Made by a program: the position numbers and the translations under genes. A stretch of DNA of 64,000 nt from Trypanosoma brucei (taxonomy: Eukaryota), in the NCBI GenBank assembly GCA_000002445.1, contig CP000070.1, positions 672,001 through 736,000 of the forward strand, given 5' to 3'. The notes under the pieces were generated by a model that had not been told where the DNA came from, made no database searches, and saw only the letters and a program-made list of their open reading frames with translations. Shown here one piece after another: positions 4,956 through 63,752 of the stretch (the stretch's first letter is position 1; each line of letters opens with the position of its first letter).

Positions 4956-6317
4956 CTATTTGTCGGCCTCCCGCGCACGGACCCTGATATAGTGAAGAAC
5001 GGTCTGCAGGTCATGCTTCAGCAGCATCAACTCCGAATTTTCGCGTTCGTACTTCTCGCGAGCCTCCGATAGTTCTCCTCTGCTGCTATCGACAGCCACA
5101 TGCTGCTTCTTCAGCGTTTCCAATGTCTCCCGAGAAGCGTGCTTTTGATCAGTCAACAAACGCTTTAACCCTTCAATGTCTCCATTCAACTCCTTCATCT
5201 CATTATTTAAGGCATACCGCTGTTGCACCAACTTACTTTCCATGTCAGCCACGCGTGCCTCACGAATGTCTCTTTCCTTCGTCGTGGTCAACAACTGATC
5301 CTTCACGTGAGTACCACGGCGTAAATGGAACAACTGATCCTTCTGCAGTTGCCGTAGACGTTCACGTTCTCCCTTCGTAGCCTCAATTTCAGCCTTCATC
5401 CCATTAAATATTTCAGCTTTTGCCTTGTCACGAGAGTCGGTGGTAGCGTTCACCTTCACCTCGTGGGCACGATATAAGTCTTGGGCAACACGATTACTTG
5501 AATCAAATGATGCTCTGGCATCCTTCAGACGAGATGGCAAGTCTTTGACATTTACACGCCACCACTCAGGAAGGTCCGTCTCGTTCCTTGCGATGTATCG
5601 TTGGCGCTCTTTCGTCCAGCAGGCTTGTAAATATGAATTCTCCACTGCTGCCTCCAGCTCCTCCACCTCCCGTTCCACATCACCGTCGTAGTAAGAGGAT
5701 ATATCACCAAGATCAATCTGAAGCAATGCGCGCTTCCTGTCATCCTCCAGTTGCTCAGCTTCTCGTCGGAGTTCGATGATATCTTCGTATATGTTCAGGT
5801 TTGGCTGCATCTCTTTCTCATATGCTTCGAATTCCCTCAGCTCCTTCTGCAGCCGAATAATAATCTGCTCCTCGGTTTCTTCCACTTCTTCTTGGGGCAG
5901 CGACTCAGCCGCACTCGAGCACCCCACATTATTGACGTCACCTTCATCCGTTCGCGGGGCCTCCTCCCCCAAAAGTTCACCATTAAGATCCCTTTCCCCT
6001 TCGATTTCATTGCACTGGGGGATGACTTCGACTAACTTCTCAGAAAAGAAATTTGCCTGGTCCTCAGATGCGGCATCACCCAACTCATCGGCGGCAGCTT
6101 CAGTCGCCGTTTCCGCTAGTCCTGACATAGCTCCTGCTGCCAATCCTTCAGCGTCTCCTCCTGCCAGTCCTCCGAGAGCAGCACTTTCCGCCTCATCCTT
6201 CGCCACACCCGTTGATGCGCCCTCACGCAGGCTCGCCAACTTACTCCCAGGTGAGACGGCGGCGTTGGAGCCCGGGCTCCGTGCATTCTTTGCGGAAGAC
6301 AGTGCAGTGGTGCTCAT
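4956..6317 (-). CDS. Coiled-coil protein, paralog 1 of a tandemly duplicated pair (453 aa from the first ATG)
   Basis: Track ORF 4956..6338 starts on GTG; the first ATG is at 6315-6317 (MSTTALSSAKN...). The central block EETEEQIIIRLQKELREFEAYE...NRVAQDLYRAHEVKVNATTDSRDKAKAE and a charged heptad-like C-terminus are shared with the gene at 8735..10348. Confidence 0.7.
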   Translation of the reverse strand: MSTTALSSAKNARSPGSNAAVSPGSKLASLREGASTGVAKDEAESAALGGLAGGDAEGLAAGAMSGLAETATEAAADELGDAASEDQANFFSEKLVEVIPQCNEIEGERDLNGELLGEEAPRTDEGDVNNVGCSSAAESLPQEEVEETEEQIIIRLQKELREFEAYEKEMQPNLNIYEDIIELRREAEQLEDDRKRALLQIDLGDISSYYDGDVEREVEELEAAVENSYLQACWTKERQRYIARNETDLPEWWRVNVKDLPSRLKDARASFDSSNRVAQDLYRAHEVKVNATTDSRDKAKAEIFNGMKAEIEATKGERERLRQLQKDQLFHLRRGTHVKDQLLTTTKERDIREARVADMESKLVQQRYALNNEMKELNGDIEGLKRLLTDQKHASRETLETLKKQHVAVDSSRGELSEAREKYERENSELMLLKHDLQTVLHYIRVRAREADK

Positions 6318-6976
6318 TGCCTCAGACTTTCTTCCCACTTCCTTTAAACACAGTCTATTGCCTTTGCGCTACACCAGTCTTAGTTAGGTATGTGCAATGA
6401 TATCGTAGCCCCCAGTGCGTATCTGGTTTTGCAGTTGAGGGGTCGTTCTCGCTTAGTTGTATTGTTCGCTTGTTAATTGGTCACTTATCACTTTCTAACA
6501 TTGATAAATGGAACCCCAATGGTGAAGCAGTGTGGTACCAGTAAACAAACAACAGAAAAGAGTTGAAAGAAAAGAGGTAACGGAAATTAAAGGGGGAAAA
6601 ACAGAAACATAGAAGGAGACCCCCAAAAAGGGAAGCAGCAAATAACTGCAGCAAACGGACAGGCAGGTGCTAGACAGGCAAGCACCTCCCTCCTCTGGAG
6701 ACGGTTCAACATGGATCACTTACACACATTTTTCCTCTTCGACTTTATCACGCTCAATTCGTTTTGTGCTTTTTCCAGGGGTATAAAGGAAAGGAAAACA
6801 CAAGAAGTGCAGTGTCATCTGAAATTGTCAATATGAAATGAAATCAAAACAACAAAACAAAAAAGAAAGGTAAAGTAAAAGGCAAAGTAAGAAAAAAGAA
6901 AAAAGAAAGAAAAGTGAAGAGAGAGAGAGAAAACGGAACCTTTTTCTTTTTCATTCGGCACTACTCGTAATTCCAA
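4956..6976. repeat. Segmental duplication, copy 1 (gene plus about 640 bp of 5' flank)
   Basis: 6339-6976 is near-identical to 10370-11006. The N-terminal coding region and 5425-5900 are near-identical to 9204-9680. The 3' coding part and the 3' flank have diverged. Period 4031 bp. Confidence 0.9.
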
Positions 6977-8734: not shown

Positions 8735-10348
8735 TCAGTAGTTGGCTTCACGAGCACGGACACGGATGTAGTGAAGAACGCACTGCAGCTCGTGCTTGAG
8801 CGACATCAAGTCTGAATTCTCCTCCTCGTAATCTTGTCGCGCTTTTCGAACCTCTTCTCCACTTCTTGTGACATCCAACAAATGCTTCCGTAGCTCTTGA
8901 ACGATACTCTCGCCACTGACTTTCGCATCCTTCAGCTCGCGCCGCAACTGAATGAGTTCCATCTCAAGGTCTTTGACTGTACGTTTCAGCTCCACAGAAG
9001 CACCAAAGTGCCTATTCTCCTCACCCACAACTCGGGCCTCCAGAGCATCCTGACGCCTTTTCGACGTCACCTGCAGCTCCTTCACGTGAGTACCACGGCG
9101 TAAGTGGAAACGTTGTTCCTTGTCTATAACCAACAGACGTTCCCGCCGCTGACGCAGCTCGTTCAACTCCGCAGCGATCTCTTGCCGCAGTTCAGCTTTT
9201 GCCTTGTCACGAGAGTCGGTGGTAGCGTTCACCTTCACCTCGTGGGCACGATATAAGTCTTGGGCAACACGATTACTTGAATCAAATGACCTTTTGGCCT
9301 CCCTCAAACGAAATCCCAACTTCATGATATCCACACGCCACCACTCAGGAAGGTCCGTCTCGTTCCTTGCGATGTATCGTTGGCGCTCTTTCGTCCAGCA
9401 GGCTTGTAAATATGAATTCTCCACTGCTGCCTCCAGCTCCTCCACCTCCCGTTCCACATCACCGTCGTAGTAAGAGGATATATCACCAAGATCAATCTGA
9501 AGCAATGCGCGCTTCCTGTCATCCTCCAGTTGCTCAGCTTCTCGTCGGAGTTCGATGACCTCTTCGTACATGTTCAGGTTTGGCTGCATCTCCTCCTCAT
9601 ATGCTTCGAATTCCCTCAGCTCCTCCCGCAGCCGAATAATAATCTGCTCCTCGGTTTCTTCCTCTTCTTCTGGAGCACCCGACGATGGCTGGCGGTCTGA
9701 CCTCCTGCTGCTGTCAAAAAAGTTCTCCCCATGCGCATCAACATCACTCTCACTGAGTTCAAATTCATCGGCACCCCCCTGCCTCCGCTCACTCCTTCTT
9801 CCGCTTTTTGCTTTACTCCTCAATTCACTTGTTACCTCACTTCCCAATTCGCTCCATTCTCCATCACCATCGTCCCGCACACCATACCTCGCCTCGACGC
9901 TTCGCCCACTTTTCCCCGCACTCCTCATCTCGCTGTCGCGCACGCTTTTCCTGTCACTTTTGAGTTCACTTTGTGGTGAAAGCTCGCGAGTGCTTTTCCG
10001 GTCACTTTTGAGTTCGCTGTGTGATATTTCGCGCATACTCTTCCGATCACTTTTGAGTTCACTTTGTGGTGAAACTCCACTCATGCTTTTCCGATCACTT
10101 TTGAGTTCACTTTGTGGTGAAAGCTCGCGAGTGCTTTTCCGGTCACTTTTGAGTTCGCTGTGTGATATTTCGCGCATACTCTTCCGATCACTTTTGAGTT
10201 CACTTTGTGGTGAAAGCTCGCGAGTGCTTTTCCGGTCACTCCTTAATGCGCCCTCACGCAGGCTCACCGACTTACTCCCAGGTGAGACGGCGGCGTTGGA
10301 GCCCGGGCTCCGTGCATTCTTTGCGGAAGACAGTGCAGTGGTGCTCAT
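8735..10348 (-). CDS. Coiled-coil protein, paralog 2, with an internal 15/16-aa tandem repeat array (537 aa from the first ATG)
   Basis: Same N-terminus and central domain as paralog 1. Residues about 40-140 carry at least 6 tandem units SELKSDRKS(T/M)RE(L/I)S(PQ/H). C-terminus LKHELQCVLHYIRVRAREANY versus LKHDLQTVLHYIRVRAREADK in paralog 1. Confidence 0.7.
   Translation of the reverse strand: MSTTALSSAKNARSPGSNAAVSPGSKSVSLREGALRSDRKSTRELSPQSELKSDRKSMREISHSELKSDRKSTRELSPQSELKSDRKSMSGVSPQSELKSDRKSMREISHSELKSDRKSTRELSPQSELKSDRKSVRDSEMRSAGKSGRSVEARYGVRDDGDGEWSELGSEVTSELRSKAKSGRRSERRQGGADEFELSESDVDAHGENFFDSSRRSDRQPSSGAPEEEEETEEQIIIRLREELREFEAYEEEMQPNLNMYEEVIELRREAEQLEDDRKRALLQIDLGDISSYYDGDVEREVEELEAAVENSYLQACWTKERQRYIARNETDLPEWWRVDIMKLGFRLREAKRSFDSSNRVAQDLYRAHEVKVNATTDSRDKAKAELRQEIAAELNELRQRRERLLVIDKEQRFHLRRGTHVKELQVTSKRRQDALEARVVGEENRHFGASVELKRTVKDLEMELIQLRRELKDAKVSGESIVQELRKHLLDVTRSGEEVRKARQDYEEENSDLMSLKHELQCVLHYIRVRAREANY
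9950..10245 (-). repeat. In-frame tandem repeat of 45-48 nt units (about 6.5 copies) inside paralog 2
   Basis: Plus strand shows repeated cacttttgagttcactttgtggtgaaagctcgcgagtgcttttccggt / cacttttgagttcgctgtgtgatatttcgcgcatactcttccgat units, alternating two subtypes. Confidence 0.85.
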
Positions 10349-12063
10349 TGCCTCAGACTTTCTTCCCACTTCCTTTAAACACAGTCTATTGCCTTTGCGC
10401 TACACCAGTCTTAGTTAGGTATGTGCAATGATATCGTAGCCCCCAGTGCGTATCTGGTTTTGCAGTTGAGGGGTCGTTCTCGCTTAGTTGTATTGTTCGC
10501 TTGTTAATTGGTCACTTATCACTTTCTAACATTGATAAATGGAACCCCAATGGTGAAGCAGTGTGGTACCAGTAAACAAACAACAGAAAAGAGTTGAAAG
10601 AAAAGAGGTAACGGAAATTAAAGGGGGAAAAACAGAAACATAGAAGGAGACCCCCAAAAAGGGAAGCAGCAAATAACTGCAGCAAACGGACAGGCAGGTG
10701 CTAGACAGGCAAGCACCTCCCTCCTCTGGAGACGGTTCAACATGGATCACTTACACACATTTTTCCTCTTCGACTTTATCACGCTCAATTCGTTTTGTGC
10801 TTTTTCCAGGGGTATAAAGGAAAGGAAAACACAAGAAGTGCAGTGTCATCTGAAATTGTCAATATGAAATGAAATCAAAACAACAAAACAAAAAAGAAAG
10901 GTAAAGTAAAAGGCAAAGTAAGAAAAAAGAAAAAAGAAAGAAAAGTGAAGAGAGAGAGAGAAAACGGAACCTTTTTCTTTTTCATTCGGCACTACTCGTA
11001 ATTCCTCTTTACATTTTTTCTCCCATGTGGTTCTTTGTTTTCCTCTCTGTTGTCATTATTACCGCCGTCCACCGCGTGTATGAGTGCGTTTCTCGTTGTC
11101 ACCCTTTTTTTTTTCTCTCCTATGCCCTCTCAACTTCACCTTTACTTTATTCATTCACATAAATCATTCTTCCATTGAGTCATCGCCACTTCCCTCATTA
11201 TTAACGTGCATCAATTGCTCATTCCCATCCTCCTTGATTGAAGCGTGATAAGCAGGGAAAAGAAGAGACATGGTAGTTTTTTTATGACGGCATTAACAAC
11301 AACGGCGGTGGACAGGGGTGGAGGGATAAAACGACAAAAAAGTGTCAGTTAAAAAAAAAATCCTTATTCCTAGCATGTTTTTTTTTCTCTTTTTCTTATT
11401 TTCTCTCTCCTTTCGTTTTCTTTTTCCTCAGTCATTTTACTACCGTATGTCCGAGTATATATATGTGTGTGTGTGTGTGAAGGAGTGAAGGGGTGAAGGG
11501 ATGAGGGGGTGAAGGAGTGAAGGGGCGAAGGGAACCAAGGTTTTCATTTCATTTTTTCCCCTCCCCCTTAGAAGTTTCAAAGGAAGCAAATGAAAGAAAA
11601 GAAAGGGGGGAAATGAGGGACTGCAGAGGGAGGAAAATGCATTACTATAGTCGCGTCCTCTCATTCTCTTTTCCCACAATTTCCCCCCTCCCCTCTTCCT
11701 TAAGAACTCCTTGTACTCCTCTTATCATCATTGTTAGTGCACACGTGCGTTTGCGTGTGAATATATATATATATATATATTCATTTATTTATTTATTTAT
11801 TCTTTCATTTCTTTCACACACACACACACAAGCACAAGCACAAGCACATTTATACTCATACATACACAATTTTATTATTTACCTTACCACTTCCACAACA
11901 GAAAGCCATACGTAGTGACAGACGATCTTTTCTCCTTTTTCCCTTCTCTCGCATCTCTTCCTTAGTAAACAAAACAATATTTTCTCCTAATTCCACGCGT
12001 ATGCGCATATGTTATTGTTGTTGCTCGCATTCATCTTTTATCTTTTATCTTTTATCTTTTATT

Positions 12064-15887: not shown

Positions 15888-17105
15888 TTAATTCCTGCCC
15901 CTCCCTTCCCCTTTTTCAATACCACGATCGGTACCATTGGTTCCATAAGGGTTGTAATGCCAGCGCTCCCGACCACCTTTACCGTTTCGAGTCACCACCA
16001 CAATGTTTGGTGTCATGCCGCAACCCTGCTCAGCCAAGCAATCACCAGATGTGCTGGGATCGACGTCGAGCGATAAGTTGTCCGAAGGAAAGAACGTACT
16101 CGAGACCTGGCGCATGTGAATGTCACTTACCTGCCGTGAAAGCGAAAAAGGGATATGCGCCTGTCCACAGTCCACAACGGAATGAGCTTCGGTGCAGGAG
16201 CTGGGATCGCAGCATCTCACAACTGCGGGTTGAGTAGTAACGGAGGCATCTCCAAGTGTCACGCTGCGATTGGCCCCAAACAGCGAACCTGTTGGGCTTC
16301 CGGGACACGTCCAGCCACCCGAGACGGGAGTCGGTGCATCGCAGGCAGCCGCTGCTGCAGGTGGAGGTGGCATAGAGGTACCGGAGGCAGTCACGACAAA
16401 ACAACCGCCGGAAGGTGAGGAGGAAGGAGGTTTCTTCCATGAACGCGGGCGCTGACCCAGTGTGAGGCCCCGATCACACCTCGCCACTTCCTTGCAGATG
16501 TGGAGGTAATTGCACTCCTCCGCGTAGCGGCAGCGATCCTGCACGTGTAGGCGGCAGAGCGTAATATCACCAGCCTCCAGCACAAGGCACGATGGGGGAG
16601 TGCCGAATGCACGACTTTCCCACTGAGCCCCATCTTGTCCCTCCGCTTGGGGTGTGGAATGAAAAAGAGCGTCCAGCAACCGCGAAATGGGAGTGGTGTA
16701 ACTGAAACGGGCGAGTGGAATGTAGCCGCCTCCGTAGGTCGCATCCGGGACGTGAACCACAACGCGCGACATCCATGATCGGTTATCCAGGGCATTGACG
16801 TAATCACGGTCCCCATGCAGCGCACAGCATATGGGTAGATAGTCCACTTGACTTCGAAGCGCAGCCACAACATTCAGCGCAGCATGCACCTGATGGCACT
16901 GTGTACCCTGCCGGCAGCGCCCATCCAGGAACAGCAAGCAAAGGCTCGGGATTGTCGTGCGTTGGTGCGCCCGGGTGGGGTACACGCAACTGAGTGGGAT
17001 CCGTAATTTGCGCGTGGCGGGATCCACAACGACCATGCACTCAACACCTTTTTCAAAACACATGATATCCCTCCTGGTTTCGAGTGGCGAGGCTACGAGC
17101 TGCAT
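15888..17105 (-). CDS. CCCH zinc-finger protein, paralog A (405 aa from the first ATG; ZC3H20/ZC3H21-like)
   Basis: Track ORF starts on GTG; the first ATG is at 17103-17105 ([20 protein letters not shown]...). Two canonical C-x7-C-x5-C-x3-H fingers: [21 protein letters not shown] and [19 protein letters not shown]. The C-terminus is Pro/Ser/Ala-rich. Confidence 0.75.
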
Positions 17106-20100
17106 AATTGTACCTTCGGTTGTATCTAAGGTCACCTTCACAGTCTTATTCGTTGCTCTTTGCACCTTTTTGGTGCTGGTTGGTGCTTATTGCTGTTTCG
17201 GTCTTTCTCAGGACAACCTACAGTCGGTGGTTCAACCCTATGCTATCCGACGAACTTATGTATTCTTTTTCTTTAGCTTGATTATTTTGGTTGTTCTCTG
17301 CTGTTGGGCTCTTTACTTTTGTAAATTCAAGCGCGTACGCGGCGGAAGCTGTGATTAATCACAACGAGATGGAGATAACGACAATAATAGTGATAATAAC
17401 AAGAGGACGAGAGAAGAAGTGAAATGGGAGCAAGAAGTGTGGCAGTTAAAAGGGGGGAAAGGGGGTAACCAAGACAAATAGAGCTCCAGCGGGTTAGGAA
17501 TCCAGCACCCAACACCTACACAACCCATCGCACAGCTCATTTCACGGATGATGAGGAAAGAAGAAGAAGAGGGAAACAGATAATGAAGAGAAAGTGGGGA
17601 CAAGGCGGCACAAATAACAATGATAAAAAGGCAAAGAGTAAAACATTTGAAACGCCACAAATACATAAATATATGTATAAAGAAATACACATAGTTTAAT
17701 AATAATAATATAAGGAGGTCATAGTACCTAGTCTATCACCACTTCACCAGCAACAGCCACCCACGCGAAATGTTTCAGGAAAACTGTGCACAAAGATCCG
17801 AACACACACATGCATCTGAATGAAGCTGCACACAGTAATATATATATACTTATTTTTTTTCGAAAAAAAAAGGGGAAACGCGCACCTATAAGTATTTGTG
17901 GTGGCGTTTGTGTGTGTTTACTTACCTTTTACCATCGTAACCTCCTCAGAATTCTATTACTCACCTTTCTGTTACCCCACGGGCACCGCGCAACCACTTG
18001 GTGATTATTCTCTCGTAGTCAGTAAGTCATCATTACTTCCGTTACCGCGCAAGAGCGTAAGAAAAAAAGAAAAGGACTTTCCCTCACACTTCCATTCCTT
18101 TCCTTTCCTTTTGGTTCCCTAACATTTCTTCCTTTCTTAATCTCTATTTCGCTTACGCAGATACATAATGCCTTAAATTTCCTTCAAAGCAACCCGATGC
18201 TACAACCAAGTCAAAGTAAGATGTAAAAGAACCAAAAGGCGGTAGACGGGGGACGGGAACTAAGATAGAGAAAGGAAATGAAAATGAAAATGAAAACGGG
18301 AATGGGAATGGGAAGAAAAAAACAAAAAGGGCAGCACAAACAAATAAATAAAAATAAAAAAGATAAAAATAAAGAAACAACCGGTTAAAGAGAGTCGGGT
18401 TTTACCTCCTTTCCTCATTTCTTTTTCAATCGACACGTATGCAAATGCAAGAATGTGCGAATGAAATTGGCCCAAAAGTGCTATCAGAAGCAATATGAAA
18501 ACGAAAAACGGTCCCCGAGTAGAGATAAAACGGAATTACGAACAGGTGGGGAAAAGAGTGCAGAAAAAAAAAATGAACGCGTGTTCATGTGTGTGGATTG
18601 TCCAAAAAAAAAATGACGAAAACACTTCGGCTGGGTTGAGGGAAACAAAAAAGATATATATATATATATATATATAACAATTATAACTATAGTAACTATA
18701 ATGATAGATCATTAATACCTCCGACTGCTGCTGTAATAAAAATAATAACAATAATTATATTGAAATGAAGGCAGCAACGAAGTTGGGCAGGAAGAAAGGG
18801 AAATGGAAGAATGAATTTGAGAGAGAGGAAAAGAAAAGAGAAAGGCAAGCGCAATAAAAGAGACCTGGTAAATATATACATACATTCATATATATATATA
18901 TATTAAAAAATAAAAAAATAACCGGTGCATTGTCGAAACAAATGCCCATTCACTAGTTAAAAAAAATTTAAAACAGCAACAACACGATAGGTACAAAATA
19001 AAACTTAAGAAAAAGATGAAAAAGGAAGAAGGTGTAATGGAGGAAGTCGTCGTAATGACTGAGTGAATGAATAACCGAGGTTTAGAAAAAAAAACATGAA
19101 TGAAACAAACACAACGCACCGACGACTCCCCTAACCGCACATACAAAAAAAACTACAAAGGTAAAGAAGAAGAAAAAAGCTGAAGTTGTACCTAATGAGG
19201 AAATTTTAAAAAATCAGTTAAAACATAATAACTGATAATATTTATATGGAAATCGAAATCCCCCACAAATGGTACATTAATATTACAGGGAAAGGGAATG
19301 GTTTTCAACAAAAAAAAAAAGAAAAAGAAACGCCTCTCTACCGTATTAAACAAGGAACGGGATAACATCACATATGCACACATGTAAAGGCATCTCACCA
19401 CTTTATTGTCACAGCCGACAAACTTATATCCATCTCACTCATTCACTCAGTCAGTCAGTCAGTCAGTTAGCCAATCATTCCTTTATTTACTCAACAGCTT
19501 CAAACAAACACGCGTAAAAACACGCGCCCACACATAGGAAATAAAGAAGAAAAAAAAGAAATTCAGTTCGTCCGGAAAAAAAAAACAGGAACACACACCG
19601 TGATCCTGTTACTTCCCATTTTTTCCCCGACTCCAATAGATATTTATTTTCTTTAATATCTCTTGATATCATTTATTTTTTATATTTAATTATCAAAAGG
19701 GTAAAAGAAAAACAAGGAGGAGAAACCATGCGCTACCTCACCCCTCTCCCTTTCCTTCAGTGCCTGGTGGCACTGTTTGACGTTATACAAAAAATATGTT
19801 TTTCACCTCTCTTTATTTTTTGTCCCGCCCCTTCCCAGCTCGCCATACGGGGTACAATTCGATCAATTCAGAAGCACACAGATGGGGAGAAAAAGATGAG
19901 CAGGTGCAAACAATAATAAATTAAACAAATAAAACCGCGCCCTCAAGTCCACAGATACCGAACGAGAAGATTAAAAGGCAAAGACACGCGTATGCTTGTC
20001 AGCCAATTCTTCTTCTTCACTTTTGCAGTAGTTTCGTTCTTATATTAAGATGCCTCACCTGAAGGGGAAACAGATAAACGACAGGATACAACACAATGGG

Positions 20101-21073: not shown

Positions 21074-22459
21074 TCAATCGCTGATTCCTCCCGTTGGAGT
21101 CACACCGTATGGATTGTGTTGCCAGGCGCGTGCAGAGACAGACGCTGAAGACACCGACTCGACCGGCTGTGGAACTGATGACGAAGTCCCATTGGGGCAA
21201 AGGTGAGTGGAGGAGCACTCATCTCCGGGACAGAAATAACAATTAGGTCCGTCACTACCGTAACCGTTCCGGCTGCCGTACGCGTAACCGTTGCAACCGG
21301 AATAATTGTTGTTGTCGGCGTAATGGCAGTCGCTGCACGACCCAACGAATGCGCATGGTGCGCACCCAGACTCAGGTGAGCTCCAGCGATCCCAGCAGCC
21401 TCCGGCCCCATACATTGCTGCATCCTCCCTTGCTGCTGCTGTTGTTGTTGTTGAGGTTGTTGTGGAAGAATAGCAACGCGGAACTCCGGGGTGCCCTTGG
21501 ACAAATCGGGGGGCGAGGGACGGCAATGGTGCAGCATCCATGCGACTTTCCATGTAGGCACCGGTGGGGTACCGCCCAGAAACCCAAGAGCAGTCGCTGT
21601 TAATATCCGACACGGCGTTATAACTCATTGAGCCCTCGTACGATCGAAGGGGGAATGGCGTCTGGTATTCAACCGTGGGGTATGAAAGGGGCCTTCCACG
21701 TACACGTTGTTGACGGGAGACCGAAACGAATACAGAACCCTTCTTTGCTCCTCGTGGGCCGGGTTCTCCCCCATCACGCGCCTGTGACGTGAGCGAGTAA
21801 TCACCGCTGCCATTATTGACATCGACAACAATTTCTTTGCAGATATGAAGGAAGATGCACTCCTCCGCGTATCGGCAGCGGTCCAGCGTGTGAAGGCCAC
21901 ATATTTTAAAGTCACATGCGTTTAAGACCATCCGCTTTGGATGTCCCCCACCATCAACTGCCGCAACACTGACGCCACTCTCGAGGCGAGCGTTGACTTC
22001 CCTCAATATCCTGGAAATGGGAGTGGTGTAACTGAAACGGGCGAGTGGAATGTAGCCGCCTCCGTAGGTCGCATCCGGGACGTGAACCACAACGCGCGAC
22101 ATCCATGATCGGTTATCCAGGGCATTGACGTAATCACGGTCCCCATGCAGCGCACAGCATATGGGTAGATAGTCCACTTGACTTCGAAGCGCAGCCACAA
22201 CGTCCAGCGCAGCATGCACCTGATGGCACTGTGTACCCTGCCGGCAGCGTCCATTTAAAAACAACTGGCAAAGGCTCGGGATTGTCGTGCGTTGTTGCGC
22301 CTGGGTGGGGTACACGCAACTGAGTGGGATCAGTAATTTGCGGGTGGCGGGATCCACAACCGTCAAGCACAAAACGCCCTTTTCGTCGAGAGCAAGGTGC
22401 CTTTCACCACCAGCTGGTGCGTTTACCGAAAAGTAGCGATGAGATTGTGGATGGCTCAT
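21074..22459 (-). CDS. CCCH zinc-finger protein, paralog B (461 aa from the first ATG; ZC3H20/ZC3H21-like)
   Basis: Track ORF starts on GTG; the first ATG is at 22457-22459 ([10 protein letters not shown]...). Fingers [21 protein letters not shown] and [19 protein letters not shown]. Poly-Q/Thr-rich C-terminal tail. The central roughly 115 aa are near-identical to paralog A. Confidence 0.75.
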
Positions 22460-25400
22460 AATGGTGTCCCGGTACTGTAATGACCTCTCTTCCTGGCGTT
22501 CAGTTGAAACTCCTCTATGTTCTTTTTTCGATGGCTTTAGTACTCCTCGCGCGGTCTCTCCCACTCACTGATATATATATATATATATTGCCTTGCTGAG
22601 TGCGCTTTGCTTCCTTCAAATTATGAGCTCCAACTATACGTGCGCAAACCTTGTCTTCCGGACTATTTTTTATACGAATAAGTAGCCAGACAACGTAACT
22701 AACTCTGTCTTTGTTCTTACCTTTGTTATGATGACTTGTGAACTTCCGTTAGTTGTTCCATTAGTTGAGGGCAGGGGAGATGGAAAGTATTTGAAATAAT
22801 CTCGAGGCAACCAAGTGCAAAGTAATTTGTGACGACGACTCGAACAAGTGGAACTACACCGCTGCTCGCAGTGCTCTCGATTACACACCTATTTTCGCAT
22901 TGTCGTTTTGTCGTTGTTTCAAGCCCCTTTCCCCTCTTTATATAAATATATAAATAAATAAATATATATATATATATATCTGTCCTTTGTTTTGCTCTCC
23001 TTGAAGGATCCATTAGCTGAGTCGCTAGATGACATGCACAGACTTCAAATAAACAAGTAAAAATAAATAATGGGGAATCGGATTTGTTTTTTACAGCCCG
23101 GCGGGAAAAAAAAGCCAGGAGCCAAAGGGGCAAAAAAAAAAAAAAGACGAACAAACAACGCGAGCGGAGGGCGATAAGTGCAGAATTGGCATGCATGTGT
23201 TTGCGCATATATGAAACAAAAGAAGAGAGAAGTTGATTAGATGAAGAACGGCAATACGCAATGGCCACAAAAAGTTTAATATACCAAATATGCTGGCTTC
23301 ATGCATTCAATATATTCTTCACCATTCTACCGCTTCTCTTCGCGCAGTACATATAATTCCGTCGCATGCGTACACTTCCACACACGATGTTATTGATCTC
23401 GATATTACAAGTTAACCACAAAAATAAGGGGAAGGGAAAATAAAAGCACGCGTATGCAAACACATACACATATATGTATATATCGAAAAGTTATTTTCAA
23501 AAAAATCATCAAGGGACATTTGCTTCAGTGGTCTCACATACAGTCCCTTTGTTTTTTCCCTTTTCCGCAGTGATTCTGTTTCTCGCTTCGTCCCAACTCG
23601 TGTTATTATTTTTTTTATCTGTGTTTTTATTTGGTCGTCTCCTTTCACCTTCTATTTGGGCAAGCTGCTTTTATTGGTACATTTTTTAAATTTTTTTGAT
23701 TGTGGCTGCGGTGCCTTTTCTGTTTATTATTACTCTCTTTCCCTCACTCTTCACTCCCCTCTTCCTCATCCTCCTTAACGATTTATTTAATGCTCGCTGA
23801 TTGTGTTGAAGACTTAAAGATAATATAAAACAATAAAATATAATAAATAAAAAAATATCAAGTGAATGCTAAGGGGAAATGGTAATTTTTTTAAATTTTT
23901 TGCCTCTCCCTTCGGACTACACCACATCTGTAAAAATGCCGTAGTCCGCACCTTTCAAAGCCCAAAAACAAAAAACATATAATATATAAAAAGGAGAAAA
24001 TAGTGTCGGATTTTCCGAAAAAATAGTGCGAGAAAACACAAGTGATTGGTGGTCCCCTTGTCTTCCTTTCTGTTTCAACCATACGGATGATTTTCTCTCA
24101 CGTCGTTACTTCTGGTGTTTTTTTTTCATTTCTTTTTTTTTTTGTAAAGGAAAAAATAATGTGTGGGACTTTTCCATATTTTTTTCCATCCTTGTGAGTT
24201 TATCTTCACTTCATTACCTTCAAATCACTCTACTGGTTTTTTCCTTCAATCATTAAATAAAAACAAAAAAGAATTAAGGGGAGCCGAGGACGCAAAAACT
24301 TCACAAACGCATACAGTAATTTCTGAAAGAAATGTGCGCTCAGAGTGTGATACAAATGGCACGTTCCACACTGTCCTACATTCTCAAATGTAAAAAATAA
24401 AATAAAATAAAACGCGACGATGAGTTGAAGAAATGGTATGAATGAAAGGCAACGAAAAGAAAATGGAATTGAATAGAACGGGCGAGAGTGGAGCAAAACA
24501 AAAAAGAAAGTGTTCAAAAAGTAAGGACGCATATTTTATTATTTTTTTCCTCCCTCCTCCATCCCTCCGCAATATTCATCCCTCTTTTTACAGCACAATC
24601 CACTGTTGCGTACTTTCCGCATATAAAAGTCACGCATTTCCATCTTATGCTCCCTACTCCTCCTCATTATTTCATTGTGAACTTTCCATTTCACCTATCC
24701 TGTATGTTTCTCTCCACCACTTTTACTCACGCTGCAGGCCCGCACCCTCACACGCACACACATGTTCCTCTCCTCTTTTTTTTTTGTCTTATATTATGTT
24801 CGCTATTCATTGTTACACCGTTGTTTACTATTTGAAATAATAATAATAATAATGGTTAAAATGTACATATGTACGTATGTACATATTTTAAATATATTCA
24901 TTTATACTTATTTTTAATTCACATACGTGCTTGCATGTTTGATCTTCAGCGTTGGAGCCATATTTTTCCAATCCGCATTATCATCCGTTTCTTCCACTGA
25001 TGTTGTTTCCTTTTCTCCTCCTTTTTCGCTTTCCCTTTCGTTTCCTTTTTTTTTTCTTCTGTTACGCTCTGTTCTGTTCTGTACTTTGTTTGGCTGTTCT
25101 GCTTCACTCACCATCATGAAACCAAAGTTGCTCCACTTATTTCGTTTCACCTCTGCAAAATGTAAATAAATAAATAAATTTTCTTATTTGAGTTCAGTCA
25201 TACCAGATGAATTACTGATTTAAAACGAATTTGGCCAACAAATGCCTGCCCGTCTCCCACATACTCACGCACATATACGAACATACGCAGTTGCCTTAGT
25301 ATATATTTTGTCCACACACTCTTCTTCTTTCTTCTTTTTTTTGTTTTGTTTTTGCCATTTGCTTTACTTTTTTTTTTCAAAAAAAAACTATTTGCTCTCT

Positions 25401-28737: not shown

Positions 28738-30864
28738 TCAAAAGGGTACGTGTAGGGGAACTTGTGAAGGCATATTCCCCTTGCCAGAGCCGTACATTGG
28801 CAAGCACAAGTTGCGAAAGCCGTCTTCCCGACCTGAGACGAAACAGAAGGGGCCGTACGTTTGCCCATCCGTTCCCATCTGCTGCTGCGCGCTAGCAACC
28901 GGTAGTCCCGTTGCAGAAATCATAGGATACATCACAGTTGTGGAAGGCACCAGAACTGTCGACGGCCAAACGGTATGTCCATTTTGCATTGGTTGTGGGC
29001 AAGGGGCTACTGATGACTGCTTCTGTGGAAAATACATTGCACAGCACGGCACAGACGGGGTGCTCACTTCCCTACCACTGATTGGGGTTACGCTCTGTCG
29101 ATCGTTTAAGCTGAACTGTGACGGTGATGGCACGCTTTTCTCCTCGCTTGGGTCGGTGACGGGGAAAGCCACACCGTGCAGCCTCATTGTTGTTGCGAGG
29201 CCGTGTCTGGTTTCGCCGAGAGGGCCATCTTCATAAACAGGTGGCCTCTGCTGAACCAACACATTCCGGCAGGTGGTACCGTCTGAAGTGATCTGTCCAA
29301 CCGTTGGCGACGCACGCGCCGAGAAGGTATTGGTGGAGGCAGAACCGTGTGAAGACAACTTCCCAGAATGAGTTCCATCCCTTTCGCTACTTACTATACT
29401 CCTTCCCTTATGCAAGTGGCTCATCGTGGGTGACTTTGAAGGGTGAAACGCCACAGTCGGATAGTTCTGCTGCTTTCTCCTATTCTGCTGCTGTGACAGT
29501 GCCCCCAAGAGGTCACCCGAAACAACTCTGTTTCCTGTGCTTTCAGTCTTTGTCGGAACCTTACACTGATCCTCACTGCCAGGGTCCTCCAAGTCTAGCT
29601 TTATAGTAGCGACCAGCTCCTTCAACACGTCTCGACAGATGTGCACATACCAACAGTCCGCTCCGTACCGGCAACCTCCCGGTTTACCGTGTAAGCGGCA
29701 GACAGCGCATGTGTTCAGTGAGCGGGACGCATTGTTCTTCAACACAAAGCGTTCCAACCCGTTGGTATATGCCACTCGACTCAGAGGTACCGCCGCGCCC
29801 TTTATTAAGATGGTACGATGGGCATTCGCTTCAGCGTCCCATTTGTTGGCGTTACACTCGCCATGAAAGGCACAACAGTAGGGAAGGCTTTCGTTTATTT
29901 GACGGAGTCGCTGCACCACCTGGGGGTCTATGTGCATTTGATAGCAGCTCGCTCCACGGAGGCAACGACCAGATTGGAAGAGAAGGCACAGACTCGGGAA
30001 GGAAACGCGGCCGCCAAGTGCTTTTGTAGGAATGATGGAGCTGAGCGGCACGTGTAGCTTGGACCGCTGCGGATCAACCACTGGAATTCTCTGCTCTTCG
30101 GTGGGCTGTTGGGGGCCTACTGTTCTACAGTCATTCAATCCATCAGGCGCAACTTTCACCTTGTCGATGGCGGATTCCATCGCTTCTGTAATTGGCGAAA
30201 ACAAGCTCGGCGTAATCTGAGACATTCCAACCTTAACGGCGTCGTGGATCAAGGAACTCTGCACATCTTTCCCCTCCACCTCCCAGATGTTCGGGTTACA
30301 CGTAACCGACCGCGTTTGCATAATGGTAAAGGGATCTTCGCTCTCTGCAGAAAAATCTTTAAAAGGTGATTCAGGCCGCGAAAAAACATGGGCAAGACAG
30401 TCATCTTGAAACTCCATATTATTCTTCTCCTGGTTCGGTAACGCCGAGTTCACCAAAGAAATGGGGAGGTCAATCGTACTGTTCACGTCACCACTTGGAA
30501 AGACAGAGGAAGTTAGACTTCCATCCACTCCCTCCCTGTTTCCAATACTCCTGGCGGCGGGCACTTCAGCTGCGTTATCTGATATCTCCCTCGTCGACAC
30601 CGTTGCGTCACCCCAATCCGTAAGATGGATGAAGGGTGCAGACACACTCACTGCAACACTCCCACCTCGAGGCAATTGACTTGCGCAAACCCCTTTGGAA
30701 GCAGTGCGCCACGCACACCCACCGTCAATGGCATCCAGCTCAGAGGGCACCCCCATACACTCTCCGCCCTGATATTGTTGGGTTGTGCTACTGGATGGTA
30801 TGCCAGCTGCGCGCGAGACATACGTGACGCTACCGGGAATGTTCGATTGTTCGGGAAGGAACAT
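28738..30864 (-). CDS. CCCH zinc-finger protein, larger paralog C (708 aa; ZC3H22-like)
   Basis: ATG confirmed at 30862-30864. Fingers SLCLLFQSGRCLRGASCYQMH (C-x7-C-x5-C-x3-H) and CRLHGKPGGCRYGADCWYVH (C-x8-C-x5-C-x3-H). Conserved context with A and B (KLHVPLSSIIPTKA..., YCCAFHGE versus ICCALHGD). Confidence 0.7.
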   Translation of the reverse strand: MFLPEQSNIPGSVTYVSRAAGIPSSSTTQQYQGGECMGVPSELDAIDGGCAWRTASKGVCASQLPRGGSVAVSVSAPFIHLTDWGDATVSTREISDNAAEVPAARSIGNREGVDGSLTSSVFPSGDVNSTIDLPISLVNSALPNQEKNNMEFQDDCLAHVFSRPESPFKDFSAESEDPFTIMQTRSVTCNPNIWEVEGKDVQSSLIHDAVKVGMSQITPSLFSPITEAMESAIDKVKVAPDGLNDCRTVGPQQPTEEQRIPVVDPQRSKLHVPLSSIIPTKALGGRVSFPSLCLLFQSGRCLRGASCYQMHIDPQVVQRLRQINESLPYCCAFHGECNANKWDAEANAHRTILIKGAAVPLSRVAYTNGLERFVLKNNASRSLNTCAVCRLHGKPGGCRYGADCWYVHICRDVLKELVATIKLDLEDPGSEDQCKVPTKTESTGNRVVSGDLLGALSQQQNRRKQQNYPTVAFHPSKSPTMSHLHKGRSIVSSERDGTHSGKLSSHGSASTNTFSARASPTVGQITSDGTTCRNVLVQQRPPVYEDGPLGETRHGLATTMRLHGVAFPVTDPSEEKSVPSPSQFSLNDRQSVTPISGREVSTPSVPCCAMYFPQKQSSVAPCPQPMQNGHTVWPSTVLVPSTTVMYPMISATGLPVASAQQQMGTDGQTYGPFCFVSGREDGFRNLCLPMYGSGKGNMPSQVPLHVPF

Positions 30865-33593: not shown

Positions 33594-34457
33594 TCAAAAC
33601 TTGTAAACCATAGCCTCTGGGTAGCCCAATTCCTTCAGATACCCACTAAGAGGACCTTGTGAACGCCCTTGCTTCTCTCCGCTGATTGTTTTCATAAAAC
33701 CTGGTGGACCACTAACAAGCAATATCGCCTTGTCAACGCAGTTAGGACTGGGCATCGTCTCTTCGATAACTTTTTTCGTTATATGACCCCTGTAACCTCT
33801 CCAATACCAAGGTGGTGACGTCAGCGAATGAAACACAAACAGCTTACCAGGGTTATCGTTGGCCAACTGACCGAAGCGATCCGCCAACAACATTTCCGCC
33901 TTCGAGTGGTTGGAACAAACCAATGAGAACTTTGTCGTATTAGAGGGCCTTCCGAGGAAGTTACGGGCAATTTGATACATTGGAGTAACACCAGTACCCC
34001 CAGCCAGCATACCAATGTGCTCATACTGACCAGACTTAATATCCATTGTCTTCCATGGGCCCTGAACTTCAATCGAGTCACCGACCTTCATGTTGTGAAG
34101 GTGCGATCCCATCCTCGAGTTGGGATATGACTTCACCAGTAACTCAAAACTTCCCTTGTCGGATTCCAGGTTCAAAGGGGTGTATGGCCGCACAACTTCC
34201 TTCCCCTTGTCGTCCACATACCGCAGAGTTATACATGATGGCGCTTCGAAATTAAGCTCCATATCCTTTTCAGGAAGGGCGAAAGTGAAAATCTTCGTGT
34301 CATGTGATTCATCCTGTACACAAACCAGCTTATACGAGTGATATACTGACTGGGAAAAGGGACTTTTTGCTGCAGCCTTGGCCTCAACCGCTCGATCAAC
34401 TTTAAAATATCCAGAGGCAACCATCCCAGTAACAGCAGCAGCTGCAAATACCTTCAT
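33594..34457 (-). CDS. NADH-cytochrome b5 reductase (287 aa)
   Basis: ATG confirmed. FAD-binding RPYTPLN, NADH-binding MLAGGTGVTPMYQ, C-terminal LLVSGPPGFM. Overall layout matches the ferredoxin-NADP reductase / b5R family. Confidence 0.85.
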   Translation of the reverse strand: MKVFAAAAVTGMVASGYFKVDRAVEAKAAAKSPFSQSVYHSYKLVCVQDESHDTKIFTFALPEKDMELNFEAPSCITLRYVDDKGKEVVRPYTPLNLESDKGSFELLVKSYPNSRMGSHLHNMKVGDSIEVQGPWKTMDIKSGQYEHIGMLAGGTGVTPMYQIARNFLGRPSNTTKFSLVCSNHSKAEMLLADRFGQLANDNPGKLFVFHSLTSPPWYWRGYRGHITKKVIEETMPSPNCVDKAILLVSGPPGFMKTISGEKQGRSQGPLSGYLKELGYPEAMVYKF

Positions 34458-38232: not shown

Positions 38233-39156
38233 CTACGAAGCGTTCTTTTTCCTGGAATTTCTCCCTTTTTTCATCACACCTTTTGGCGGTTGAGGCACCC
38301 TTTTCTCAAGTATTTTGTCAAGAACTCTAAAAAGTTCCTCGGGGATATCATCGTTTTGCCGAAGCCAGAGAGTGTGTAAACTGGTATTGAACTCTTTCAC
38401 ATCGCTCTCACTTTCTTGTAAACCTTCCATGATGTGGCCAAAAGAACTTTGGCGCTCCTTTTCGCTGCTCTCCGACTTTGCCGAAGTAAACTCCTTCAAG
38501 GAAGACTCTAAACCCTTTTCAGAACCAGTGTACAGCGTAGTTCCTGCAGAAACAGCATCGCGAAGCTCAGGTGAGAGCAAGTCCACAACATGTTCAAGTG
38601 CAGAAACTAGTTTGTAAGCACCAAGGAACGTCAGTCGGTTTCCACGTAAGTTTAATGTTTTAATCTTTGATGAGCTTGGAAGCGAAGAAGCGAGCGCCAC
38701 CGCACCAGCATCATGTATACCGTTACAAGAAGCATGCAGAGACTCCAAATTCCCAATACATTTAGAGGCAGCAACCGCTCCCCTATCACCAATGTAGTTC
38801 CCATTGACATTCAAGTGTTTCAAACACCTGTTACGTTTGATACACGAAAAGAATCTAACGGCCCCTTCCTCTTGCATATCACACATAGACAAATCTAGGG
38901 AAGTAACGGTGTGGTTCAGTATCAACATTCGGCCAATATTAACGCATTTTTCGGGCCCCCAAAATGTTGAGGAGCAGCACAATTTTATTCCCCATGGCTC
39001 TGGGGGGTTCAAGTATCGGTTGCAAGCTATGGCAGCCTCCTCGCTGGGTCTCAGACGCCATTTGAAACTGTTTGGAGCATCAGGGTCTGGGGGTGCTGTG
39101 CTTCCCTCAATCGTTTCAATCGCCCTCTTGTACACAGATTCAACTTCTTCTATCAT
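38233..39156 (-). CDS. Leucine-rich repeat protein, ribonuclease-inhibitor-like (307 aa)
   Basis: ATG confirmed. Repeated LxxLxLxxNxIgdxGaxaLa units (LKHLNVNGNYIGDRGAVAAS, LESLHASCNGIHDAGAVALAS, IKTLNLRGNRL). First gene of the minus-strand unit. Confidence 0.7.
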   Translation of the reverse strand: MIEEVESVYKRAIETIEGSTAPPDPDAPNSFKWRLRPSEEAAIACNRYLNPPEPWGIKLCCSSTFWGPEKCVNIGRMLILNHTVTSLDLSMCDMQEEGAVRFFSCIKRNRCLKHLNVNGNYIGDRGAVAASKCIGNLESLHASCNGIHDAGAVALASSLPSSSKIKTLNLRGNRLTFLGAYKLVSALEHVVDLLSPELRDAVSAGTTLYTGSEKGLESSLKEFTSAKSESSEKERQSSFGHIMEGLQESESDVKEFNTSLHTLWLRQNDDIPEELFRVLDKILEKRVPQPPKGVMKKGRNSRKKNAS

Positions 39157-42100
39157 TCACCTAAAACAAGTAAACAAGGAACAGAAAGAATAAATTGTTA
39201 TCTTCATGAGCAATAATAATAATAACAACAAAAGGTGGTACCCTAAGCGTAAACCTCGTTGCTCTCCACCACACATACACAGAGAAGAAAATGGCGATGG
39301 CGGGAAGCAATCACAAGATGATCTGCCTGTGGCTGACACCATTTCTTAGACCCAAGTAACGGATACGCTAAATCGACAGTAACAACAGCAAAAAGGGAAA
39401 GAAAAAGAGAGAGATCTTGTTGAGCACAACGCATCTTTTACCACTTATCAGGAGGCTCTCCCGCACCACCAAAATCCCACGACCTTACATTCCCGGCCCG
39501 ATCCGGGGGACTGGACAAGGACGAGCACGGGAGCCTCAATCATCCACTTTCCCTTCAGCGGAGACAGAGTTGTGAATATTCAAAATGAAAAACGAATCTC
39601 AAACTTGATATACAGATGCGGTCACATGCGCATGTGAGCATGAACGTCTGCACATATATGCAGGAAATGTAGACAAATATTTTGACGAAAACAAGGGGCG
39701 CTGACAGCGATTCGAGGCCACCAAACCTCACAACAAACGACTGTCGATGCGCGGAAAACGGCAAGAACCAGTGCGAACACACGCGAAACACGCCACCCGC
39801 GCCACAAGGCCAAATAGGCACCCATCCCCGGAGAGGCACGACTCGCCCAACGGATCACGGACCACACACCCTCAGGGGAAACCGCAGTTAACTAGCCGTT
39901 CCGGCCAGGTGCCAACCACAGCCGCGCCACTCAACTACCAGCGAGGATGCGAGCAGAAGAGGTCACACAAGGGGAAGGCTGTACTAACGCAGCAAGGGGG
40001 CGTGGAACGCACTTGCAATCGGGAAAGCGTCTGCATCAGCAGGTCCCCGAATGTATGCGCGCGGGTACCCAGTAACTGCTAACGTTGAACCTGTCCCTCC
40101 CCCTCCTTCCGACTGAAAATCGAAGGGAAAGGGGGTAGCGATCTCTGGTAAATGAATCGGGATACTCGAGAAACGGTCTTAAAGTGGCCAACGAAGCATC
40201 GCAGCCAGGTATGACAAAAAAGATTGAGCTCAGTCTCTCGCAAGCGCGGTCTCCCCATCAAACTTTCCGCGTACTCCACTGACAGTGGTCAGAGAACATC
40301 CACCGAGAAAGGGGCTAAGTAAACACGGTTGTGAACCCGAAACCGTATGAGAAACCATCCACAAAAATGCCGCAAATATCAAAGACAGAATTTCCAGGGG
40401 TGAGGAGCCGTGAACCCCGAGCCGCTTACAACAAGGAAACCGAAGTTGGCATCAAGCCGATTGCCCACACGAGCTGCGCCAGCAAGAGAAAATGTATATG
40501 AATGGGGATTGCAGAACCACAGTACACTGGTAATTCCAGCCGCTTCCACGTGAATCCTGGGTCCGGTTCGCTGCCTGTGTGGAGAGAGCCAAGGATTAGC
40601 GGTGCTTCCCACCTGGGGGGAAATGGTCTCCTCCCCCCTCGGCATCACACGGTGCAGGGGCCTGCCACGCCTTCGTGCGACACCGTTTGGTCATTGGCCC
40701 CTGGGTACGTGCCAGCTTGCATCCAGAAGAAACTCTGTAGCAAAAAGGAAGAAACGCTTTCTGGGCTGCATAACTGCCGCATGGGGCACGGCATAATACC
40801 TAAAATATTTTGAGAGGGGCGATAAAATACCATTGTTGGGGGTGGGGAGCAAGCAAGCTCGCAGAGGTGACACCATTCCGAACAGCAACCGTGAGAAGTA
40901 CCCTCTGTGAGTCGGTCAAAGCTGATTTCCAGGAGAATAGAAGATAACATGGAGTAGTTGCTTCCATTAAGGCGATTGTGGTTCATACCAGAGCAGCAAG
41001 CGGCAGGCGCACAGGCTTAGACGTTTGGAAAAGCAAGCTGGAGGAATTAGAAAGCAGCGGCTGCCTTCATAGATCATGAAAGAACGGCCGGTTTAATGGA
41101 TCATGGGCGCAGAATTGCAGTCCCGAATTGCCTCAAAGGGCGTCCCTACTTCACAGGATATATAGAACAGTTTCCACATAATCGAAAATTGGAAATGAAG
41201 ATGGGAAATGTGTAGCCAGGAGACTTCTTCGATCTTTGCGGTGCGACACAAATTTGTCCTCGGATCACTTCTGCTCACTGTGATAATGGACGAACCAGAA
41301 GGGGTGCCGACCGGAGCGCCGGGTATATAGGCATAGCTTCTTTGCAAGCAATCTAATCATCATTCGCCTTGGCGCAGGTATAAAAAGATAATTTCGGCAA
41401 AAAAAAAAGGGCGGCGGAGGATCCACAAAAGAAGTTGCCAAAGTGAGGGCCATCCCATGCTCTGTGTAGAGATTGAAGATGAAACCGCTAAGATCAATTC
41501 ACACCACTCTTCGACCACACAAAGAAACTTATGCTGCAGCGTATGTTTCTGGTAAATTTTTGCCTCACCTTTGTGTGAGAAGATTCAATAACGCACAAGT
41601 GTGAGAACTGCATACACGAAAACTAGTTTATAAAGCCAACGAGTGGGGAAGACGTACCAAAAGAAGTTAGTCTCATTCCAATGGCAGATCATTTATTCAA
41701 AAGGGTGCCAGGCCCCTGTATATATATATATATATATCCGGAGGAGGAGAGGCAACTTCGAGTGTCCGCAAAAACAACTTTACTCGTAAGAACGATAGGT
41801 GTTAAAGTAGATTCAAGGGGGAAAGAGCAGATGCCGCAGAAGATTAAAAGTATAAACAAGCAAAGAGGAGAGTGAGGAACCTTGGATGATACGCCTACCA
41901 GGGTTGGAAGCACTGGATGGCAACGCCAGACAATTCTTCGGGAGCTGCGAGGCCACATTGTAGAGAAACGAAGGACGAAAATACGCGAAAAGGCGTGTTC
42001 CGTGGACGCTTCGATGGCGACACCGCCATACAAGATTGCGGAACCAGCAGTCCCTCACCTCCCCCATAAAATCTAACATAAGCGCGTTCATTAGACGGTG

Positions 42101-56822: not shown

Positions 56823-57386
<564 letters not shown>

Positions 57387-57720: not shown

Positions 57721-58296
<576 letters not shown>

Positions 58297-58629: not shown

Positions 58630-59205
<576 letters not shown>

Positions 59206-59539: not shown

Positions 59540-60115
<576 letters not shown>

Positions 60116-60448: not shown

Positions 60449-61024
<576 letters not shown>

Positions 61025-61358: not shown

Positions 61359-61934
<576 letters not shown>

Positions 61935-62267: not shown

Positions 62268-62843
<576 letters not shown>

Positions 62844-63176: not shown

Positions 63177-63752
<576 letters not shown>

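Follow-up and report, generated by a model that had tools for sequence, protein, structure and literature searches.

Concerted evolution limited to the conserved segments of duplicated genes is part of standard theory. In Trypanosoma brucei, 21 of 47 tandem arrays were reported to show partial gene conversion (Jackson 2007, BMC Evol Biol 7:54, PMC1855330), and the middle copy of the phosphoglycerate kinase array was described as a conversion chimaera (Jackson 2007, PMC1855330). The tandem zinc-finger genes ZC3H20 and ZC3H21 of the same organism, presumably served by the same recombination machinery, resemble these arrays (PMC1855330) in being co-transcribed tandem paralogs in which one segment groups by species and the rest by orthology. 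Unlike the arrays, they form a pair of regulators with different functions instead of serving gene dosage, and a single module is converted between unalignable flanks and can be traced across the sampled Trypanosoma species. In the main text of Jackson (2007, PMC1855330), a term search returned neither “zinc finger” nor any identifier of the form Tb927.7.26xx.

Further afield, a report on mammals (PMC2720389) describes gene pairs that stayed similar for more than 100 My by ongoing conversion, and such long-lived concerted pairs differ from ZC3H20/ZC3H21 in the taxa concerned. The mosaic conversion of VSG genes is likewise a short-tract, homology-guided, non-reciprocal and non-allelic copying by homologous recombination; it makes diversity in the expression site, which is selected by host immunity. 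At ZC3H20/ZC3H21, unlike VSG, the module of a core-genome housekeeping regulator is homogenised, and nothing suggests a specialised mechanism. The N-terminal finger regions of the two proteins were described by Liu et al. as near-identical, with three differences as against eight in the second fingers (bioRxiv 10.1101/646547). The term “gene conversion” is absent from that paper (term search of bioRxiv 10.1101/646547), and a literature search found no paper connecting gene conversion with ZC3H20 or ZC3H21. The reading favoured here, to which a probability of about 0.9 is assigned, is that the first-finger modules of ZC3H20 and ZC3H21 have undergone recurrent interlocus gene conversion.

The window, meaning the whole 64,000-nt stretch of T. 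brucei DNA analysed (GenBank assembly GCA_000002445.1, contig CP000070.1, positions 672,001 to 736,000), carries two CCCH zinc-finger paralogs, A and B, which are transcribed in the same direction with B upstream of A (Table 1). The protein of paralog A differs at 2 residues from the T. b. gambiense DAL972 hypothetical protein P0001, and that of paralog B matches the TREU927 protein P0003 of T. brucei brucei with 100% identity; an exact-sequence look-up of the paralog A protein of the window found no record. A cluster of ZC3H22, ZC3H21 and ZC3H20, corresponding to Tb927.7.2680, Tb927.7.2670 and Tb927.7.2660, was described by Liu, Marucha and Clayton (bioRxiv 10.1101/646547), and since both the gene layout in the window and the protein matches agree with it, paralog A is identified by sequence as ZC3H20 and paralog B as ZC3H21. 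Their RNA binding is taken from the literature, in which the proteins of the cluster are reported to bind mRNA and to stabilise the bound mRNAs, probably via MKT1-PBP1, with stage-specific expression that differs among them (bioRxiv 10.1101/646547). Both genes encode regulators of life-cycle differentiation in trypanosomes that have been studied before, and ZC3H20 itself has been described in the literature as a key regulator of quorum sensing and stumpy formation.

Both proteins contain two fingers of the form C-x7-C-x5-C-x3-H, as located by regular expression at amino acids 56-74 and 184-202 of ZC3H20 and at 64-82 and 187-205 of ZC3H21; the Pfam CCCH matches are weak and fall on the same residues. 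The family definition of Liu et al. includes an MKT1-binding (Y/W/T)(R/T/Q)H(N/D)PY-like motif near the C-terminus (bioRxiv 10.1101/646547), to which the WQHNPY of ZC3H21 conforms, while the WHYNPY found near the C-terminus of ZC3H20 is a variant. A tRNA scan of the window found none.

Table 1. Position of the two paralogs, their shared block and neighbouring features in the window (partner positions are those in ZC3H21)
Feature	Position	Strand	Partner	Remarks
ZC3H20 (paralog A, Tb927.7.2660) CDS	15888..17105	minus		405 aa from first ATG; ORF 15888-17165
ZC3H21 (paralog B, Tb927.7.2670) CDS	21074..22459	minus		461 aa from first ATG; ORF 21074-22564
Homogenised block, ZC3H20	16684..17054	minus	22014-22384	371 nt, codons 18-141, in frame; self-BLAST
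Partner block, ZC3H21	22014..22384	minus		Codons 26-149, in frame; self-BLAST
Perfect tract	16684..16871	minus	22014-22201	188 nt; encodes region downstream of finger 1, ending FSYTTPIS
Finger-containing half	16872..17054	minus	22202-22384	22 differences in 183 nt; 88-91% identity
First CCCH finger, ZC3H20	16884..16940	minus	22214-22270	Regular expression
Second CCCH finger, ZC3H20 (unconverted)	16500..16556	minus	21845-21901	
Sole other significant match	16576-16488		21921-21833	74% identity over 89 nt
Shared strain variant	16902	minus	22232	Synonymous; A in both window paralogs, C in both paralogs of GCA_003543875.1 and DAL972
CCCH ORF	28738-30864			708 aa; upstream of ZC3H21
FAD/NAD oxidoreductase	33594-34457			Beyond the 708-aa CCCH ORF

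Self-BLAST of the whole window aligned the blocks of the two genes over 371 nt with 94.07% identity (E=5e-163), the two copies being direct repeats separated by 5,330 bp. A preliminary description of this DNA had pointed to a pair of near-identical 347-nt tracts, perfectly matched over about 180 nt and about 90% identical thereafter, in genes of differing lengths and termini. These tracts, which self-BLAST lengthens by 24 nt, indeed align gap-free with 333 of 347 positions identical (14 variable columns), comprising 188 perfect nucleotides and a remaining 159 nt at 91%; the proteins, of 405 and 461 aa, have unrelated N- and C-termini. The block does contain the first finger, as had been proposed, but the perfect run lies downstream of it and the finger itself sits in the half with 88-91% identity. 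The sharpness of the identity block within otherwise diverged genes was borne out, its edges being resolved within 30 nt. In successive 30-nt steps across the 3' edge, identity falls from 30/30 through 18/30 to 5/30, with about 5-12/30 outside, and across the 5' edge it rises from 6/30 through 22/30 to 28/30, with about 6-10/30 outside. Only one other significant match was returned by a sensitive search using each gene with 1.5 kb of flank, and it falls at the second finger (Table 1). At the protein level, the paralogs are near-identical over approximately 124 residues and moderately identical in the second finger, while the remainder, including both termini, is unalignable. ZC3H22 was also considered as a conversion partner and rejected, since its first-finger region gave no nucleotide match to the block in self-BLAST.

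A run of 188 identical nucleotides did not arise in any of 200,000 permutations when the 22 differences were shuffled inside the block, nor in any of 200,000 when 53 differences were shuffled over the block and the second finger together. The two halves of the block are heterogeneous (0 versus 22 differences, permutation P<5e-6). Nine amino-acid differences fall in the finger-containing half, and at 6 of these 9 the derived residue is found in ZC3H20; the ZC3H20 changes L35R, Q47H and Q57L (the last within the finger) affect residues that scarcely vary among trypanosomatids. The GC3 of the T. brucei block is 0.61 as against 0.54 elsewhere in the gene, and an excess of 0.06-0.09 is found in the blocks of T. 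brucei, T. vivax and T. cruzi, with T. theileri inconsistent; GC-biased conversion is not claimed on the basis of such a slight rise and in view of the T. theileri inconsistency.

Synonymous divergence between the T. brucei paralogs was estimated by the Nei-Gojobori method, with a sliding window of 20 codons, and collapses locally within the block, with sharp edges. In the perfect-tract half, Sd/S is 1.0/48.3, giving a dS of 0.02 and a dN of 0; the lone synonymous difference is the Ser codon straddling the 3' edge, so that dS is 0 in the perfect 188 nt itself. The corresponding values for the finger-containing half are 10.8/44.5, dS 0.29 and dN 0.085. Over the 33 codons of the second finger, which acts as a yardstick of old divergence inside the same genes, Sd/S reaches 13.5/19.8 (pS 0.68), with a saturated dS of about 1.8 and a dN of 0.22, even though amino-acid identity there is 80%. 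Third-position differences number 9 in the 123 codons of the block and 16 in the 33 of the second finger (Fisher P=3e-7). Sliding pS is 0.06-0.42 at codons 21-80, 0 at codons 81-140 and at least 0.58 elsewhere, the second finger included, and the profile that had been suggested as a check is thus strongly non-uniform. The earlier notion that the RNA-binding module had been homogenised is therefore accurate for the first-finger module only, the second finger having escaped with its dS of about 1.8.

Homology searches recovered a pair of proteins from each of T. vivax, T. cruzi marinkellei, T. conorhini and T. rangeli; T. congolense yielded one, and Leishmania and Leptomonas gave single proteins of greater length. 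Searches with ZC3H20 and ZC3H21 gave no 21-like protein of T. congolense, the genes of which are fragmented in the assembly according to Liu et al. (bioRxiv 10.1101/646547). Outside the block, two classes of sequence are readily told apart. The 20-like class carries the N-terminus MQLLAPLIEAKEG..., the second-finger context VLEAGDIPICRLH...LPLGRRSR and the tail WRHDPY; the 21-like class, to which the Leishmaniinae sequences conform in type, carries ...SRHL..., SVFxSxSRQQxLRGYPL after the second finger and the tail WQHNPY. Inside the block, where conservation of the protein is highest in the family, species-specific residues are common to both proteins of each species. The gene order of 22-like, 21-like and 20-like is kept in T. 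brucei and T. cruzi, with the oxidoreductase and the ZC3H22-like gene further upstream in T. cruzi as in the window, and the 21-like gene also lies upstream of the 20-like gene in T. vivax and T. theileri.

Comparison of the nucleotide sequences puts the identity of the block between the paralogs of one species at 93.8% in T. brucei, 97.0% in T. vivax and 95.7% in T. cruzi, as against 60-65% between the major species, orthologs included. Approximately 366 nt are homogenised in T. vivax, where a perfect run of 288 nt ends at a Ser codon shared with the T. brucei boundary. T. cruzi has a 386-nt block at 95% identity with its second finger at 70%, and T. conorhini has a perfect run of 225 nt that ends about 140 nt earlier. 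T. theileri is the exception and illustrates weak homogenisation, with block paralogs only 74.7% identical and a pS of 0.3-0.65. Homogenisation is therefore present in every sampled two-copy Trypanosoma lineage in which DNA was compared, except T. theileri, and is not uniform across the genus.

Trees were built by neighbour joining (NJ) on Kimura distances with 300 bootstraps. In the block tree, Tb20 and Tb21 pair at 100%, as do Tv20 and Tv21, while the four T. rangeli sequences group at 88% and the T. cruzi group at 81%. The tree of the rest of the protein, for which the C-terminal alignment is partly of low complexity, instead unites all 20-like sequences at 97%, Tb20 with Tco20 at 97%, these with Tv20 at 86%, and the stercorarian 21-like sequences at 100%, and its 20-like clade agrees with the species tree. 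A tree of the second finger only did not recover the 20-like clade at support of at least 60%. There is thus a phylogenetic conflict between segments, in which the block clusters by species and the remainder by ortholog, and the cross-species comparison that had been proposed came out as conversion would have it. The 20-like clade outside the block, along with the kept gene order, supports a single ZC3H20/ZC3H21 duplication older than the split of the sampled Trypanosoma species. Accordingly, of the recent ectopic gene conversion first suggested for this locus, the conversion is retained, while a single recent event gives way to recurrent concerted evolution in several lineages.

One transfer can be placed in the T. 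cruzi lineage by a four-way test of the 20-like and 21-like genes of T. cruzi and T. c. marinkellei. Over nt 1-210 of the block, the paralogs pair by species (99.5% and 96.2%, versus 92-93% across species). Over nt 211-300, the T. cruzi 21-like gene matches its paralog at 98.9% and the marinkellei 20-like gene at 92.2%, but its own ortholog at no more than 75.6%, and over nt 301-372 orthologs pair again at 97.2% and 95.8%, with paralogs at 78-83%. By this pattern, the transfer ran from the ZC3H20-like to the ZC3H21-like gene, over roughly at least 90 nt, in the T. cruzi lineage after the marinkellei split. In the same segment, the 21-like, outgroup-like HGDRDY occurs in both genes of the Salivaria, and the 20-type FHGDEDIA or FHGDDDIA in both genes of T. 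cruzi and T. rangeli. Given this distribution, the motifs suggest that transfers may have run in opposite directions in different lineages.

Within the T. brucei group, both genes were compared in three assemblies, namely the window, GCA_003543875.1 and T. b. gambiense DAL972. The perfect 188 nt is identical in all six sequences, and 21 of the 22 paralog differences in the finger-containing half are fixed in 3/3 assemblies, from which the block mosaic is older than the separation of these strains. Strain differences inside the block amount to about four per paralog, and the synonymous variant listed in Table 1 is the only variable block site at which the strain difference is common to both paralogs. 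The probability of a coincident identical change there is roughly estimated at 0.01-0.04, and this one site is suggestive of a conversion after strain divergence, in which a mutation was followed by transfer.

Other histories could leave a block of this kind and have been given due consideration. An event confined to T. brucei, whether a domain transfer or an unequal crossover, might account for a single block, with the 188-nt run as its one tract, yet the 0 and 22 differences of the block halves call for two events or more, or else for strong selection, the strain variant at 16902/22232 is common to both paralogs, and the blocks of T. vivax, T. cruzi, T. conorhini and T. rangeli have been homogenised independently with species-specific substitutions; a one-off event has only a very slim chance of being correct. 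Slimmer still is that of the history favoured by Liu, Marucha and Clayton, who inferred independent duplications from a full-length protein tree (bioRxiv 10.1101/646547). A ZC3H21-like gene would then have been duplicated separately in T. brucei and in T. cruzi/T. rangeli, with fast divergence outside the module. Their Clustal Omega full-length tree grouped the paralogs by lineage (bioRxiv 10.1101/646547) and the NJ tree of the block by itself agrees; however, the 20-like and 21-like motif sets outside the block are common across species, the 20-like clade has 97% bootstrap support with a conserved gene order, and the paralogs are neither sisters gene-wide nor uniformly low in dS. As the second-finger dS is saturated within each species, a recent duplication is incompatible with the data.

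The identity of the two blocks might also have been created during assembly, by collapse or consensus polishing of two similar regions, and Liu et al. indeed discarded reads from the 5' ends of the two coding regions as non-unique (bioRxiv 10.1101/646547). Very little credence is given to such an artefact, since the block measures just 371 nt between unique flanks, so that a collapse would need to be confined internally, the window, GCA_003543875.1 and DAL972 all give an identical block beside the same 21 fixed differences, two T. cruzi assemblies are concordant, and the pattern is found in five species. Selection acting on the nucleotide sequence without any transfer of DNA, through an embedded RNA element or extreme codon constraint, would be in keeping with the block being the most conserved protein segment in the family, but it is the hardest of all to credit. 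Constraint on the DNA sequence cannot explain paralogs that are 94-97% identical within species when orthologous blocks are 60-65% identical between major species; the second finger is similarly conserved in protein and yet saturated at synonymous sites, and an element of this sort would need parallel change in both genes of every species, which is what conversion produces.

Under recurrent interlocus gene conversion, a stretch of approximately 370 nt, which codes for the first finger and for the conserved region that follows it, would be repeatedly overwritten in one gene with the other gene as template; the route would be non-reciprocal conversion, in which direct repeats 5.3 kb apart undergo homologous recombination. 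Repair of a break or stalled fork in one block may draw on the other block, on the same or the sister chromatid, the enzymology presumably being RAD51-type repair limited by mismatches. Homologous recombination in T. brucei is strictly dependent on how long its substrates are and is hampered by mismatches (Barnes & McCulloch 2007, PMC1904282). The N-terminus, linker, second finger, C-terminus and UTRs appear to have diverged past the homology that recombination needs, so tracts would stop at the block edges; with recombination length-dependent and mismatch-sensitive (PMC1904282), they should be unable to reach the diverged flanks. Conversely, strong purifying selection on the module would maintain a similarity between the two copies that still permits recombination, rendering the process self-sustaining. 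The latest T. brucei transfer would have covered at least 188 nt at 16684-16871, and the finger-proximal half may either be older or have been kept distinct by selection or protected from conversion.

Whether homogenisation is itself favoured by selection, rather than being just a by-product of homology, such that the first-finger modules must co-evolve, is a more speculative proposition, and the answer is doubtful, leaning towards no. If it were true, both regulators would need a common RNA feature or partner through this module and would differ in finger 2, expression and effector tails, and conversion would be the route by which a change is passed from one paralog to the other in several Trypanosoma lineages. 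The 3' tract boundary at one Ser codon in both T. brucei and T. vivax would then fit selected homogenisation, and L35R, Q47H and Q57L could represent a recent selected escape from conversion, tied to the role of ZC3H20 in the stumpy form.

The mechanism envisaged is a textbook process, and the value of the locus is corrective and illustrative rather than conceptual. On the practical side, read mapping, the specificity of RNAi, and CRISPR or PCR design for ZC3H20 and ZC3H21 all have to reckon with the 188-371 nt of identity. As the first-finger module evolves in concert, full-length trees of the family mislead, and orthology should be assigned outside the block. The comparisons support a correction of the published history of independent duplications in favour of one old duplication plus concerted evolution, whereby a single duplication before the split of the sampled species would replace independent, vector-adapted ones. 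For the two regulators themselves, the source of any differences in mRNA targets would have to lie in finger 2 and the tails, or else among the small number of ZC3H20-specific changes close to finger 1.

The tandem CCCH paralogs ZC3H20 and ZC3H21 share a homogenised block of about 371 nt, the first-finger module, and their orthologs can be told apart by sequence outside it as 20-like and 21-like. Both T. theileri paralogs were found in the usual order (see table), with a block identity of just 74.7% and one short species-specific stretch in common (HADLTVVNELRNQV); the 21-like gene carries long poly-N/T low-complexity insertions. Homogenisation of the block appears to have mostly lapsed in the T. 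theileri lineage. The T. grayi gene was found to be of mixed character, being 21-like in its second CCCH finger and C-terminus and 20-like in its N-terminus (MQLLAPLIDAKEG...), which an N-terminal tree places among the 20-like sequences. The contig stops 1.5 kb past this gene, short of showing any partner gene. Its mixed character may stem from gene conversion that extended across the 5' end, from an unequal crossover or from mis-assembly.

Features of the T. brucei window and of the T. grayi (L004) and T. theileri (L007) loci
Feature	Coordinates	Description
Near-identical stretch, second paralog pair	6206-6974 vs 10237-11005	769 nt, 99.35% identity
Central stretch, second paralog pair	5299-5892 vs 9078-9671	594 nt, 88% identity
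Internal tandem repeat	9936-10240	within ORF 8735-10369; units of ~47 and ~93 nt, 75-93% identity
Tandem array	56837-64000	period ~910 bp, 99.6-99.8% identity; continues past window end
ZC3H20 residues R35, H47, L57	17002, 16965, 16936-16937	lineage-specific replacements in T. brucei
T. theileri ZC3H20/21 paralogs	L007:4811-6412 and 10001-11374	both found, usual order
T. grayi gene (GCA_000691245.1)	L004:10001-11272	ZC3H21 position, 3' of ZC3H22-like gene

Another tandem paralog pair with an identity mosaic was observed in the window, comprising the minus-strand ORFs 4956-6338 and 8735-10369. Its near-identical stretch spans the first ~33 codons together with ~640 nt upstream, and outside this and the central stretch the two ORFs are diverged; the pair probably represents a second conversion tract, non-coding sequence included. 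Their proteins, which end in ...VLHYIRVRAREA, gave no match in Pfam and are similar to the product of the T. theileri gene 3' of the ZC3H20-like gene (L007:18231-19625). The internal repeat codes for SDRKS(T/M)RE(L/I)S...SELK units in ORF 8735-10369 and is missing from its paralog.

All long ORFs within the window lie on the minus strand up to 39156 and on the plus strand from 44953 onwards, and the interval of ~39156-44953 looks like a divergent strand-switch region separating two polycistronic units. A tRNA scan of the whole 64-kb window found no tRNA genes. Each unit of the terminal array contains one ORF, the product of which, identified by eye, we take to be histone H2A. Whereas this is a dosage array homogenised throughout, homogenisation in ZC3H20/21 is limited to one module.

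Nearly all other trypanosomatid homologs, including ZC3H21, T. congolense ZC3H20 and those of the Leishmaniinae, carry L, Q and Q at ZC3H20 positions 35, 47 and 57, respectively. One of the three T. brucei replacements (L57) falls within the first CCCH finger. Taken together, R35, H47 and L57 may reflect a first finger of ZC3H20 that is functionally diverging and resistant to homogenisation.
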